A stretch of 43,469 nucleotides of DNA from Candidatus Parcubacteria bacterium (GCA_019661945.1 JAIFWI010000004.1:1-43469); one strand, 5' to 3'; counted from the stretch's first letter, positions 8,215 to 12,283 are shown. The notes: generated by a model from the letters alone, not told the origin. Translations and numbers: made by a program.

Positions 8215-8505
8215 ATGAAAATTCGTAAATCAAACATTGGTTTAGTTTTATCACTCATATATATAGTAGTATCGATATTCTTTATTTCGACTCAGGGACT
8301 ATTGGGAGAAAGTTTCATTACCCTCATTCTCGGCTTGCCGTGGAGCATGATTCCAGCTTTCTTTGAATATGCTCATTCTACCAGTATTATTCTCTATATC
8401 TCGCTTATTGTGCCGCTTATTGTTAACGTATTTGTGCTCTATTGGATTGGCTCATTTTTTGACCGGAAAAAACCTGAGGCTACATTCCCACCTTCCCATC
8501 TTTAA
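8215..8505 (+). CDS. Hypothetical membrane protein
   Basis: Hydrophobic 96-aa ORF with TATACT 6 nt upstream of the ATG. Confidence 0.7.
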   Translation: MKIRKSNIGLVLSLIYIVVSIFFISTQGLLGESFITLILGLPWSMIPAFFEYAHSTSIILYISLIVPLIVNVFVLYWIGSFFDRKKPEATFPPSHL

Positions 8506-9671
8506 TTACCGAAGTATAGTTCCGATGGAGATGGTTTACCTAAGAGTTTATGAGCAATATGCTCCCCGGCCATAAAGCAAACAACCTGCGATCCAGCACC
8601 AGAAATTGTTGCTTCGTTTTCAGAGACCTTAATAAAGGGCCCTTGTGACCAATGTTTATTAACTCCAAAATGTCCAGACCAGGTATATTCTATTTCAAGA
8701 TCTAAGTAAGGAAATATTCTTTTTATAAATCCCTGAAGCTGTTTTAAGTGAGGGAAATGTGGATCAGTCTTTCGATGTTTTTTATGTACTACAATACCAC
8801 CAAATCCAAGAAGGATCCGATTATCTTTTGTCAGTTTAAAATAATTCTCATTCTTGCGTGAATCCCAGACGACTTTTTTTCTTTCAGCAAAACCAATTTT
8901 CATGACTTCCTCCGAAGTAAGCGGTCTTGTGACGATAATTGTCGTCCGCAAATTCCTGATATCATCAGATGGATAATCGACATCAATTGCCCAAATAATT
9001 TTTTTGTATTTTATAGTGCCATGATTTGTCCGAGCTATACCATTGATAGCTTGTACCACAGCAGTATTCTCGTATATCCTGACTCCATTCTTCTCAACTA
9101 CCCCGGAAAATCCTTGAACAAATCTTAAGGGATCAACACATAACCCATGTTGCGCAGACAAAACACCATGATTGAAGAGTGGAGAATTAATTTCCTTTTT
9201 TAATTCGTCACCCTCAAGAATTCTTGTCGTACTTTCTATTCTTTTCTCTGCTTCATATTCTTCATATAAATTATTGTAATTCTTGCCTGGGAAACCACAA
9301 ATTAAGGTATCCTGTGACTCTGCATCACAATCTATTGCCTCTGTAGCAATGATCTGTCTTAATGCTCTCAGTGCCTCATGAGTTTTATTCCAAAGAAGAT
9401 GAGTCTTTTCTAGACCATACTCTTTAATCATATCTGTTAAATCTCTCTCGCCCCGGGTTACAAGTGTTCCGGCCGCCTTGCCTGTAGCCCCACTACCGAT
9501 ATACTGTTTTTCTACTAAAACGACATTTTGAGCACCAAATTTTGTTAAAAAATGAGCGGCTGAAACCCCCGTTATTCCCCCGCCGACTATTAAATAATCA
9601 CACTCGATATCTTCCTTGAGCTCTGGACGGATAACATACCCTGGATTTTGCCAAAATATTTCATGTTTCAT
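8502..9671 (-). CDS. FAD-dependent oxidoreductase (DAO/PuuB-like)
   Basis: DYLIVGGGITGVSAA dinucleotide-binding motif, GSGATGKAAG and YTWSG. Likely start is MKHEIFW at 9671 (track start 9716). Confidence 0.88.
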   Translation of the reverse strand: MKHEIFWQNPGYVIRPELKEDIECDYLIVGGGITGVSAAHFLTKFGAQNVVLVEKQYIGSGATGKAAGTLVTRGERDLTDMIKEYGLEKTHLLWNKTHEALRALRQIIATEAIDCDAESQDTLICGFPGKNYNNLYEEYEAEKRIESTTRILEGDELKKEINSPLFNHGVLSAQHGLCVDPLRFVQGFSGVVEKNGVRIYENTAVVQAINGIARTNHGTIKYKKIIWAIDVDYPSDDIRNLRTTIIVTRPLTSEEVMKIGFAERKKVVWDSRKNENYFKLTKDNRILLGFGGIVVHKKHRKTDPHFPHLKQLQGFIKRIFPYLDLEIEYTWSGHFGVNKHWSQGPFIKVSENEATISGAGSQVVCFMAGEHIAHKLLGKPSPSELYFGN

Positions 9672-9690
9672 GTCCCTAGCATACCATAAA

Positions 9691-9720
9691 CAACATACCG
9701 CCCGTAAGGGCGGCATATTG
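9691..9720. repeat. GC-rich intergenic hairpin (REP-like)
   Basis: CAACATACCGCCC-GTAA-GGGCGGCATATTG. On the minus strand all 13 stem positions pair, two of them as G-U. Confidence 0.5.
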
Positions 9721-9893
9721 AGGCTCTATTCTACATTTATCTTTCGTTAATGAGTAATAGAATTTGATTTTTTCGGTCAAGCTGTACGCACAGCCTGTAG
9801 CAAAAACAATACACTATATACATGAAAATAGTATGAACTATTCCGAGCTCAAGTTTGTGATATACTAAACACGTAAGCTAATATACAAAAATT

Positions 9894-10058
9894 ATGAATA
9901 ATTCATGCGCTACCTGCGGCAAAGAAACCAAAGGTTTTACCTGTAAAATCTGCAATAATCATTTTGAAACAACAGAGACAGCACATGCTGACTGCGAAGG
10001 AGTTATGGAAGCAAAATGCGTCGGCTGCAGCCAAGCCGAGAGCACATGTAGCTGCTAA
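9894..10058 (+). CDS. 54-aa Cys-rich metallothionein-like / metal-binding small protein (not in the ORF track)
   Basis: Manual translation: MNNSCATCGKETKGFTCKICNNHFETTETAHADCEGVMEAKCVGCSQAESTCSC*, with 9 Cys and 2 His. TGA-TATACT lies upstream (9858-9866); the ORF ends 12 nt before the ZIP gene. Confidence 0.8.
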   Translation: MNNSCATCGKETKGFTCKICNNHFETTETAHADCEGVMEAKCVGCSQAESTCSC

Positions 10059-10070
10059 TATCCACCGTTC

Positions 10071-10793
10071 ATGCCTATCATCATAAGCATCGCTACATTC
10101 GTCTTTACGTTTCTCGGAGGTCTGTTTGCTTTGCGGTTTAAAGATAAGCTTCATCTTATTTTAGGCTTTAGTGCTGGCGCAGTTATTGGTGTAGCTTTTT
10201 TTGATTTAATTCCTGAGGCAATTGAATTGGGCAGTTCTGCGTATGATATCGCTACTATTACTTCAATCACTGCATTAGGTTTCATTAGCTACATGATTCT
10301 CGATCGATCTATCATCATGCACAGCCATGTTCACGAAGAACACGATCATGCTCATTCTTATCGCGGCAAATTAGGAGCAGCTAGTTTAGCTATTCACAGC
10401 TTTCTTGATGGCGCAGCCATCGGTTTAGCCTTTCAAGTTTCAGCGGCAGTTGGGGTAATCGTGGCCACAGCAGTGCTCGTCCACGATTTTTCTGATGGCC
10501 TTAACACTGTTAATTTAATTTTAAAAAACCATGGCGGCCGAAAACAAGCCCTGCGCTGGCTTCTTATTGATGCTATCGCTCCTGTTATCGGAGTTATCTC
10601 TACTTCATTCTTTACTCTACCGGAACATAGTTTGGGAGTCATCCTGGCCCTTTTTGCAGGATTTTTCTTATATATCGGCGCCAGTGACCTTTTACCAGAA
10701 AGTCACCACAGTCACCCAACAATTTGGACAACGGTCATGACTATTATCGGCGCAGGCATATTGTATGTCGCTATTCACATCGCTGGTTTCTAG
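10071..10793 (+). CDS. ZIP family metal (zinc) transporter
   Basis: GFSAGAVIGVAFFDLIPEA, His-rich loop HSHVHEEHDHAH, HSFLDG, HDFSDG and LYIGASDLLPE. Confidence 0.92.
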   Translation: MPIIISIATFVFTFLGGLFALRFKDKLHLILGFSAGAVIGVAFFDLIPEAIELGSSAYDIATITSITALGFISYMILDRSIIMHSHVHEEHDHAHSYRGKLGAASLAIHSFLDGAAIGLAFQVSAAVGVIVATAVLVHDFSDGLNTVNLILKNHGGRKQALRWLLIDAIAPVIGVISTSFFTLPEHSLGVILALFAGFFLYIGASDLLPESHHSHPTIWTTVMTIIGAGILYVAIHIAGF

Positions 10794-10846
10794 TTTGTAT
10801 CCAAGCTCGACACTATAGTACAATATAAAGTGTAATACACGCTCAT

Positions 10847-12283
10847 ATGCGAAAGCTTTTTATCATTGTACAAAGTCTTACTCTCATTTTCATTCTATTG
10901 TTCTCATTTCCCCTGGCAATCTTCGCTCAGCAAGTCATTCAGGCTAATCCCATAAATCAAAAAGCGACTGTGTTTATTACTCCCCGAAGCGGCACCTTTC
11001 TTGAGGGTTCAACATTTGAAGTACCAATCTTTCTTAATACCCATAATAATAGTATTAATGCTCTTCAGCTTGAGGTGAAATTTGATCCAAAAAAATTATC
11101 AATCGTGAAGCCATCAGGTGGTCAGTCAATTATTGGCATTTGGGTTGAGCCACCAAGTTTCTCAAATACTCAAGGTTTTGTCAGAATTGTTGGTGCCATT
11201 CCAAATAGTATTACTACTGAGAGTGGCTTGATCACGACCATTACCTTCAAAGCTATAGCTTCCGGTCCGACCACAATCTTCATTTCAAAAACCACAAAGG
11301 TTCTGGCTAGTGATGGTTTTGGTTCAGAAGTGCCTACAAGTCTCGATCAAGCTGTCTATACTATTATGCGCCGACCACCGGAAGACGTAAAAGTTTTTTC
11401 TGAAACCCATCCCTTTACTGACCAATGGTACAACAATGACAGTCCGATTGTTTCTTGGGAAAAAAATCCTCAGGTAACTGATTTTAGTTTTACCTATGAT
11501 AATAAGCCGTTCACTATTCCTGACAATATTCCAGATACTGAAGAAACAACAATATCATTTCCAGATTCAGCTGAGGGTATTAGCTACTTTCATATAAAAT
11601 CACGGAAGAAGGATGTGTGGGGAGCAACAACGCACTTCCCGATTCGAATTGACACTACTGCACCTGCAGGTTTTACTCCTCATGTTGAAAGTTTACAGAC
11701 TAAAACTGATGAAGAAAGTAGTCGAGCTATTGTCTCATTCTTTACTACAGATAATCTTTCAGGTATTGATCATTATGAAATTGGTATCATTGATCAGAGC
11801 ACACCCGCAGATGTTTCACCGGCTTTTGTTCAAAGCGAGAGCCCCTTTCTTTTACCGGTAAATACTGAGCATGGTTCGCGCCTTATCGTCAGAGCTTTTG
11901 ACCGAGCCGGCAACGTTCGAGATGTTTCAATGAATGTATCAGTGCCTTTTGCTTTGACTACAGCTATCAGAAGCAACGTGGTTTGGATTCTAGCTCTCCT
12001 TCTTATTATTATTTTAATTTTGCTCCTCATTCACTACCTTATCGGTCATAAGATTTTGGCTAACTTCAAGAAAGCCCTGAAAATTATTCACGATGAAGAA
12101 CGCCAGCCATTTGCAATCGTACCAAGACTTCAACCCCAAGGCGTTTCTGAGCATTTTGAACCCCAATTCCAACAAAAGGCCATGCCTCAACACATTCAGG
12201 TTCCAGAAATTCAGATTCCTGTAGTCCGGCTACCTGAAGATCATATCTACACCCCTAATGCAGATAGCGCCTTGAATCGCTAA
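10847..12283 (+). CDS. Secreted, membrane-anchored cohesin-domain protein with Ig-like modules
   Basis: Signal peptide, cohesin-like INALQLEVKFDPKKL...VLASDG, Ig-like RAFDRAGN and a C-terminal TM helix. Confidence 0.75.
   Translation: MRKLFIIVQSLTLIFILLFSFPLAIFAQQVIQANPINQKATVFITPRSGTFLEGSTFEVPIFLNTHNNSINALQLEVKFDPKKLSIVKPSGGQSIIGIWVEPPSFSNTQGFVRIVGAIPNSITTESGLITTITFKAIASGPTTIFISKTTKVLASDGFGSEVPTSLDQAVYTIMRRPPEDVKVFSETHPFTDQWYNNDSPIVSWEKNPQVTDFSFTYDNKPFTIPDNIPDTEETTISFPDSAEGISYFHIKSRKKDVWGATTHFPIRIDTTAPAGFTPHVESLQTKTDEESSRAIVSFFTTDNLSGIDHYEIGIIDQSTPADVSPAFVQSESPFLLPVNTEHGSRLIVRAFDRAGNVRDVSMNVSVPFALTTAIRSNVVWILALLLIIILILLLIHYLIGHKILANFKKALKIIHDEERQPFAIVPRLQPQGVSEHFEPQFQQKAMPQHIQVPEIQIPVVRLPEDHIYTPNADSALNR

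Follow-up and report, generated by a model that had tools for sequence, protein, structure and literature searches.

To our knowledge few bacterial metallothioneins have been characterized, and we know of nothing on metal buffering in bacteria of the candidate phyla radiation (CPR) or in DPANN archaea. Metallothioneins are defined operationally by low molecular weight, high cysteine content, few aromatic residues and CxC or CxxC motifs, and SmtA adopts a zinc-finger-like fold around a Zn4Cys9His2 cluster. The accessible part of one review (PMC7387436) names only SmtA and MymT as functionally investigated among bacterial metallothioneins, and describes MymT as a small Cys-rich Cu(I) metallothionein of Mycobacterium tuberculosis that acts in copper detoxification. 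Here we analyse the gene for a 54-residue Cys-rich microprotein that lies immediately upstream of a ZIP-family metal importer gene in a contig of 43,469 bases (C22; JAIFWI010000004.1, referred to as the window) from a Candidatus Parcubacteria genome (G000; GCA_019661945.1; 860,826 bases in 41 contigs, 97% complete). The open reading frame (ORF) is a real protein-coding gene of a conserved family and should be annotated. All source names encountered for its members are ‘hypothetical protein’, and no publication on the family was found in searches of open-access article text.

The window protein resembles SmtA and BmtA in size (about 55 residues), in Cys content (about 16-17%) and in the presence of His among the putative ligands, and its nine Cys and two His equal the ligand count of the SmtA cluster. 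ArsR/SmtB-type regulators are found near some family loci, and a zinc-handling context is plausible. The family differs from SmtA and BmtA in placing four CxxC/CxC pairs within a rigid 50-residue core and in lacking a match to PF02069, the SmtA/BmtA model. For the window protein there is no PF02069 match at E<=1, which agrees with the original prediction that its Cys spacing is unlike that of SmtA. PF02069 is also absent from the 25 families listed for 53 members, a list whose tail consists of families matched by one member each, such that single weak matches are possible. The SmtA-type domain of a thioredoxin-metallothionein chimera was considered as a relative and, from the accessible part of its description (PMC13578184), belongs to a different family.

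MymT, compared here by description only, is likewise a small Cys-rich cytosolic protein, and five family loci are found among copper genes. The family differs from MymT in having conserved His residues and CxxC knuckles, and its copper context is confined to 5 of the 56 other loci surveyed and does not extend to the window. Rubredoxins, the rubrerythrin C-terminal domain and the LapB domain share with the family CxxCG knuckles that follow β-strands, and oxidative-stress or thiol-redox neighbours occur at many family loci, but the family has two Cys4 sets and a His/Cys site in 50 residues and no aromatic core. Archaeal zinc fingers of the HVO_2753 type (PF07754; PDB 6ydh) are similar in length (50-60 residues) and in their four CxxC-type motifs; the family is distinguished from them by its extra His/Cys ligands, its genomic contexts and profile matches that remain below threshold.

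Identification of the microprotein gene

The microprotein contains nine Cys (positions 5, 8, 17, 20, 34, 42, 45, 52 and 54; 16.7% of the residues), two His (23 and 31) and two Phe. The putative ligands are arranged as CxxC-x8-CxxC, H31-x2-C34, C42-x2-C45 and a terminal C52-x-C54. Counted by eye from the translation, the protein is acidic, with seven Asp/Glu against four Lys and no Arg, and no signal peptide or hydrophobic stretch is found in it. The locus therefore carries the elements from which the original prediction was drawn: an ORF with this composition and these motifs, an upstream -10 box (TATACT at 9861-9866, with TG at 9858-9859, read by eye) and a stop codon 12 nt before a ZIP gene (gap 10059-10070) whose His-rich loop has six His within residues 84-95. 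Coordinates of these and other features are collected in Table 1.

Among the 182 six-frame ORFs of 40-80 residues in the window, the microprotein ORF is the only one with nine Cys, and the runner-up has seven; at least nine Cys occur in none of the 9,517 ORFs of this size obtained from 50 mononucleotide shuffles of the window. A chance ORF in the intergenic leader of the ZIP gene would be consistent with the lack of a Shine-Dalgarno motif 5' of the gene, and with the lack of the ORF at the ZIP locus of a genome from another genus of the same taxonomic family (G003). The probability of this explanation is negligible, because homologues with invariant Cys and a dN/dS well below 1 occur in dozens of genomes, which already contradicts it, and because shuffling does not yield ORFs so rich in Cys. 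An SD-like motif precedes just 4 of the 22 long ORFs of the window, so its absence here is at most weakly informative.

Table 1. Positions of the microprotein gene, adjacent elements and variant family members (window coordinates unless a locus is given)
Feature	Position	Strand	Description
Microprotein gene, stop included	9894-10058	+	54 codons, ATG start, TAA stop at 10056-10058
Extended -10-like element TGaTATACT	9858-9866	+	27 nt 5' of microprotein ATG; candidate promoter, read by eye
Perfect 6-4-6 palindrome AATAGT-ATGA-ACTATT	9827-9842		Upstream of microprotein gene
ZIP-family metal importer gene	10071-10793	+	240 aa; Pfam Zip (PF02535) E 2.7e-22, 79.9 bits vs 35.1 cut-off
Extended -10-like element TGcTAATAT	10053-10061	+	Within last codons and stop of microprotein gene; ends 9 nt before ZIP ATG
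His-rich central-loop variant	L015 1501-1698	+	Up to 7 His in about 24 residues among the three variants
His-rich central-loop variant	L077 3460-3639		As above
His-rich central-loop variant	L079 3995-4162		As above
Family domain fused in frame to PF14026 (SCO4226-like nickel-responsive domain)	L084 1261-1680	-	Genome G504; E 4.6e-12
Truncated relative	L016 1513-1650	-	Genome G264; 45 aa, without first CxxC

Family architecture and selection

The core, delimited by the first and last Cys, has a length of exactly 50 residues in 41 of the 42 coding sequences and in 52 of the 53 aligned proteins. Position counts below refer to the 52 distinct 50-residue cores, in window numbering. C5, C8, G14, C17, C20, C42, C45, C52 and C54 are present in all 52; eight of the nine cysteines on which the original prediction depended are thus invariant among these cores. 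Position 31 is His in 51 cores and Cys in one, and position 33 is Cys in 46, His in five and Asp in one, an interchange of Cys and His that is typical of metal ligands. The central region is completed by His at position 27 (45 of 52) and position 37 (42 of 52) and by Cys at position 38 (46 of 52). Ten Cys are found in 40 cores and three His in 29, with a median Cys content of 17.5% and one aromatic residue. Members are typically 52-58 residues long and carry 13 putative Cys/His ligands. The operational traits of a metallothionein (low mass, high Cys, few aromatics and CxC/CxxC motifs) are displayed both by the window protein and by the family.

The window protein retains both invariant Cys4 sets together with H31. 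Its centre is divergent: T27, D33, V37 and M38 stand in place of the usual H27, C33, H37 and C38, while H23 is found where 47 others carry Glu and C34 where 51 others carry Gly. The central site of this copy is reshaped and probably weaker, as judged from these substitutions.

The family has evolved under purifying selection. The mean non-synonymous difference is 0.246 and the mean synonymous difference 0.891, which is saturated (820 pairs); for the 33 of the 820 pairs with 0.1<dS<1.5, the median dN/dS is 0.24. The dN/dS comparison put forward with the original prediction thus indicates strong constraint on non-synonymous change.

Members vary in the central loop and at the C-terminus. Besides the His-rich loop variants (Table 1), Pro/Ala-rich C-terminal tails ending in …APAV or …APAM are seen in P0003-P0007, L002, L014, L052 and L089. 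The fusion to a nickel-responsive domain has the junction …KCAC-A-MSLFMGLH… and looks like the product of a lost stop codon between adjacent genes. In the accessible part of its description, SCO4226 is a nickel-binding protein (PMC4186839). A word-index search found no fused forms of at least 192 residues, which is weak evidence, and the single fusion known to us came from the genome scan.

Relationship to known families and predicted fold

Searches of Pfam and NCBIfam with the window protein return nothing significant. Across the 53 members the best Pfam E value is 0.003, and all matches are sub-threshold and to zinc-ribbon or zinc-finger models, among them the TiaS ribbon (7 members), the LapB ribbon (6 members, best E 0.027), zf-C2H2_6 (4 members, best E 0.036), Desulfoferrod_N (4 members, best E 0.067) and HVO_2753_ZBP (PF07754; 2 members, best E 0.069). 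The last of these is under its cut-off, which places the family outside PF07754. The family also falls outside the classical C2H2 class; its spacing is C-x2-C-x6-H-x3-H, compared with C-x2-4-C-x12-H-x3-5-H in classical fingers. When the family profile is compared with PDB sequences, the top match is a C2H2 finger (E 0.011), and 6ydh is matched at E 0.25. With no described match in Pfam, NCBIfam or the PDB, the suggestion that the microprotein represents a possibly new family is sustained. In the ESM Atlas, only unnamed clusters are reached at 0.92-0.93, and the nearest named cluster is HVO_2753-like (0.85-0.86).

AlphaFold2 models computed with the family alignment have a predicted local distance difference test score (pLDDT) of 88.0 and a predicted template modelling score (pTM) of 0.67 for the window protein, and a pLDDT of 95.7 and pTM of 0.74 for a typical member. 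Neither model has a Foldseek match in the PDB at E<=0.001, a comparison in which small size limits power; the highest-ranked matches, all weak, are to multi-zinc domains and to rubredoxins (rubredoxin E about 0.7, LapB TMq 0.44). VIA-align against 48,161 chains leaves the window model without a chain at Z>=2, again with power limited by size, and gives for the typical member a single chain, the rubredoxin-like domain of rubrerythrin 9fj2_A (Z 2.5, root-mean-square deviation 1.8 Å over 33 residues). SmtA chains are absent from the fold matches listed for both models. The weak rubrerythrin-domain match suggests that in the predicted fold C17/C20 may pair with C42/C45, leaving C5/C8 and C52/C54 as the second pair.

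Distribution of the family

Single-sequence searches are nearly blind to this family. A word-index search with the window protein returns only itself, and phmmer against 1.84 billion representatives finds a single relative (P0002, E 6.3e-5); profiles were therefore needed. A scan of 61 related genomes contains a clear homologue in G021 (BLASTP E 3e-8), and a profile search of a 5.8-billion collection yields nine proteins. With the window genome included, profile scans are positive for 11 genomes in a phylum-wide sample of 401 and for 12 in a sample of 251 from the order. In GTDB species genomes, 66 pattern matches reduce to 44 confirmed loci, 41 intact ORFs and 40 distinct proteins, and six metagenome loci were recovered, five of them with an intact ORF. 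Loci L057, L061, L062 and L080 have no intact family-pattern ORF and are excluded from the counts, and L078 duplicates L077. Locus L017 matches the profile weakly, over 23 residues (E 6.5e-4). Four genomes with weak matches (G003, G045, G055 and G028; E 0.014-0.15) were considered as sources of homologues and dropped, as none has a family-pattern ORF.

According to record titles, the Patescibacteria/CPR hosts of the GTDB loci include Zambryski-, Lipton-, Nomura-, Kaiser-, Taylor-, Uhr-, Andersen-, Berkel-, Vogel- and Wildermuthbacteria, as well as Saccharibacteria. Titles beyond the CPR comprise one Limnocylindria and two DPANN archaea, one Woesearchaeota and one Aenigmatarchaeota metagenome-assembled genome, and a Thermoleophilaceae protein lies inside one 90% cluster of the family.

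Genomic context of family members

Neighbouring genes were surveyed by Pfam scan at 56 other family loci: 41 GTDB loci with 3 kb on each side (298 ORFs); L002, L008 and L013-L016; L075, L076, L077 and L079; L088, L089, L092 and L093; and L084. L009-L012 and L018 recur among the GTDB loci with an identical protein and were counted once. About 24 of the 56 loci have a metal or thiol context in a tally made by hand, and the associations below are qualitative.

A thiol-redox cluster is found at ten loci (L019, L020, L021, L023, L024, L025, L028, L034, L046 and L054). It is assembled from DsbD/CcdA, TlpA-like redoxins, DUF3179, DoxX, glutaredoxin and a thioredoxin reductase (TrxR)-like flavoprotein. 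Some copies also include an ArsR-type regulator, a DSP phosphatase and a fusion of glucose-6-phosphate dehydrogenase (G6PD) and 6-phosphogluconate dehydrogenase (6PGD), and the spacing between the family gene and adjacent cluster genes is often just a few bases. In L023, L025 and L028 the order is TrxR-like gene, family gene and TlpA/Prx-like redoxin, with a gap to the downstream redoxin of 6-8 nt in L025 and L028, and in L019 the family gene is flanked by a redoxin and DUF3179. The Fur-peroxiredoxin cluster at L016 has its truncated variant between the glutaredoxin and desulfoferrodoxin genes, a position in which rubredoxin is often found. DoxX alone adjoins L088, and DsbA, with or without VKOR, is found at L036, L038 and L059. 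The thiol-redox cluster is itself recurrent in the CPR (e.g. L021 3361-8168), and the single ORFs joining G6PD and 6PGD at L025 5031-7613 (861 aa) and L028 6961-9348 (796 aa) adjoin it.

Copper genes (multicopper oxidase, cupredoxin or HMBD P-type ATPase) lie on the same strand as the family gene in L033, L037, L039, L042 and L043. Zinc uptake genes are represented by a convergent ZnuA in L008 and by ZnuABC at a distance of 1.2 kb in L036. ArsR-type regulators are near L021, L024, L032 and L044 (ArsR/MarR-type in L032 and L044); alignment of the ArsR proteins of four loci and of the window genome for metal-sensing motifs had no clear outcome. An ABC exporter (ABC_membrane and ABC_tran; L035, L079 and L092) and a convergent AdoMet decarboxylase gene (L002, L052, L056 and L089) also recur. 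A subtilase adjoins L048 and L054, and translation genes surround L029, L045, L051, L077 and L013, the last of these beside MetRS.

The adjacent ZIP gene and its surroundings

The ZIP protein scores 66.9 bits against the 252-bit cut-off of the ZupT equivalog (NCBIfam NF003243), far too low for assignment to that group. It is the only recognizable zinc importer found in the window genome, where searches for ZnuA, CDF and Fur-family proteins gave nothing above cut-off; DsbD and DUF3179 were likewise sought in this genome and not found. In an assembly that is 97% complete, these negatives fall short of proving absence. One ArsR-family regulator and one P-type ATPase are present, both on another contig. 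The family gene thus persists here without the thiol-redox cluster seen around its relatives. On contig C32 of the window genome, an 89-residue ORF that is hydrophobic in its N-terminal half and has nine Cys in its last 42 residues (L068 1144-1413, plus strand) lies directly 5' of the only clear ArsR-family regulator (L068 1453-1749).

No terminator was found between the microprotein and ZIP genes, which makes read-through from one into the other likely. The extended -10-like element upstream of the microprotein gene is unreported by a consensus scan of 9500-11000 because the scan also demands a -35 hexamer; requiring both hexamers, it gave no sites on the plus strand and four on the minus strand, with 3.8 expected. 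TATACT/TATAAT-like hexamers lie 5-25 nt 5' of many ATG codons in the window (e.g. 6626, 12303, 15550, 20408, 22606 and 24615), and these hexamers, together with the scarcity of SD motifs, suggest leaderless or short-leader mRNAs.

Further upstream, the perfect palindrome of Table 1 has one additional exact copy in the genome (C5:1534-1549). Considered as a regulator site, AATAGT-N4-ACTATT has nine genome matches with at most one mismatch against four for a reversed control, and gives no regulon signal. A 13-bp GC-rich hairpin at 9691-9720, terminator-like on the minus strand, overlaps the initial codons of an FAD-oxidoreductase ORF taken at its longest (8502-9716, minus strand), whose true start may be a downstream Met. 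The minus strand of the window also contains a single ORF of 3,966 residues at about 28.1-40.0 kb.

Functional interpretation and alternatives

We infer metal binding, its stoichiometry, the identity of the metal, a buffering role and co-transcription with ZIP from conservation, ligand pattern, genomic contexts and predicted fold. The microprotein very probably binds metal, because the family presents 13 conserved Cys/His ligands per 50 residues, with interchange between ligand types, hardly any hydrophobic core and a fold predicted with confidence. We tentatively favour a putative cytosolic protein folded around bound metal and having a metallothionein-like buffering role. The grounds for this preference are how densely the ligands are packed, the expansion of the central loop with His in some members, the contexts linked to copper, zinc and nickel, and the position beside ZIP in the window. 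The microprotein would be a small acidic protein of the cytosol whose fold depends on the metal. The family core, with two invariant Cys4 sets and a variable central His/Cys site (H27, H31, C33, H37 and C38), could supply ligands for about three metal ions, and the window copy probably holds two ions firmly and a third weakly. Such a protein would be a high-capacity, thiol-based cytoplasmic buffer or store for Zn(II), or for Cu(I) or Ni. Transcribed just ahead of ZIP, and probably reading through into it, the gene would provide imported metal with a ready acceptor.

Several observations weigh against a buffer of this kind. No Zip-family neighbour is found at any of the 56 other family loci, and a tblastn search of 93 stored loci with the window ZIP recovers just the window copies and three loci that had been fetched with ZIP itself. 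The closest ZIP orthologue, in G003, is 77% identical, and the 43 nt between its start and a divergent gene hold no small ORF. In two unpublished genomes the ZIP proteins are more distant: 29% identical in G001 (same genus, 92% complete), where a single-protein query finds no match to the microprotein, and 33% in G002, which is unmatched by the family profile. The two-gene zinc uptake-and-buffer module of the original prediction, which had proposed linkage to ZIP genes as a check, thus fails as a conserved unit; the adjacency is unique to the window genome among those examined, and the ZIP-plus-buffer arrangement is a one-off. ZIP may also have its own promoter at 10053-10061, because the -10-like element there has the same spacing as TATACT at the G003 orthologue, which likewise ends 9 nt 5' of the ATG. 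The window copy is without four of the five usual central ligands. At other loci the commonest neighbours are thiol-redox genes and not metal transporters, and about 32 of the 56 have neither a metal nor a thiol context. Finally, the rigidity of the core and the very high confidence of the fold are more in keeping with a structured zinc ribbon than with a flexible metallothionein, and the weak structural hints are solely rubredoxin-like.

The rigidity of the 50-residue core and the very confident fold would fit one alternative, in which the microprotein is a structural multi-zinc finger of the zinc-ribbon type whose metals hold the fold while it binds a protein or nucleic acid as a small regulator or adaptor, in the manner of archaeal small zinc-finger proteins, the ZIP gene being incidental. 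The sub-threshold Pfam matches to zinc-ribbon and zinc-finger models (TiaS, LapB and HVO_2753_ZBP), the C2H2 finger at the head of the PDB sequence matches, the HVO_2753-like Atlas cluster, the loci without metal or thiol context and those among translation genes would all be accommodated. We consider it somewhat unlikely, since a generic adaptor would not be expected to recur among thiol-redox and copper genes or to be fused to a nickel-responsive domain, the central loop has undergone His-rich expansion, and an acidic protein is ill-suited to nucleic-acid binding. The same thiol-redox contexts would be explained if the microprotein were redox-active in thiol or oxidative-stress pathways. It could shuttle electrons between TrxR-like flavoproteins and a peroxidase or superoxide reductase through a rubredoxin-like Fe(Cys)4 centre, or serve as a zinc-thiolate redox switch. 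The tight operon positions beside TrxR-like and redoxin genes in L023, L025 and L028, the DUF3179 neighbour in L019, the location of the L016 variant and the weak fold matches to rubredoxins and the rubrerythrin domain are consistent with such a role. DUF3179 itself, which features in the accessible parts of two papers on prokaryotic selenoproteins (PMC9312934, PMC13188914), is found in 23 of the 401 phylum-sample genomes and lies within 4 kb of the family gene in both genomes that contain the two (G064 and G180). These are just 2 of the 10 other family-positive genomes in the sample, however, and the window genome keeps the family gene although no DsbD, DUF3179 or similar cluster was found in it. 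Given the conservation of His ligands and the occurrence of His-rich loops, Zn or Ni is a better candidate than an Fe(Cys)4 site; rubredoxins have an aromatic core that is missing from the family, and the fold matches are far short of significance; a redox function is therefore unlikely. The small size and many Cys, together with the ABC exporters and subtilases noted above, could also point to a precursor from which a modified or secreted Cys-rich peptide of ribosomal origin is derived. This is highly improbable for a protein whose entire core is conserved without a leader/core split, which has no signal peptide, which carries conserved His ligands in a compact, confidently predicted fold, and whose neighbours in the Pfam scans include no radical-SAM, lanthipeptide or cyclodehydratase family.

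The metallothionein-like buffer can be extended to a fuller proposal, possible but doubtful when taken in all its parts: an undescribed prokaryotic metallothionein-like family with a Cys10His3 ligand set in a rigid 50-residue core, a fold for which no solved relative was found and about three metal sites. This family, spread through ultra-small-genome CPR and DPANN lineages and some Chloroflexota and Actinomycetota, would link cytosolic Zn, Cu and Ni buffering to thiol-redox homeostasis, and in the window would have been recruited in front of the only recognizable zinc importer found.

Implications

The genomes of CPR bacteria and DPANN archaea are minimal, and that of the window is without a recognizable Zur, ZnuABC or CDF. 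In this setting the family is a directly testable candidate for a metal buffer, being conserved and readily synthesized and having a predicted fold for which no solved match was found. It could instead represent a new small redox or zinc-finger module.

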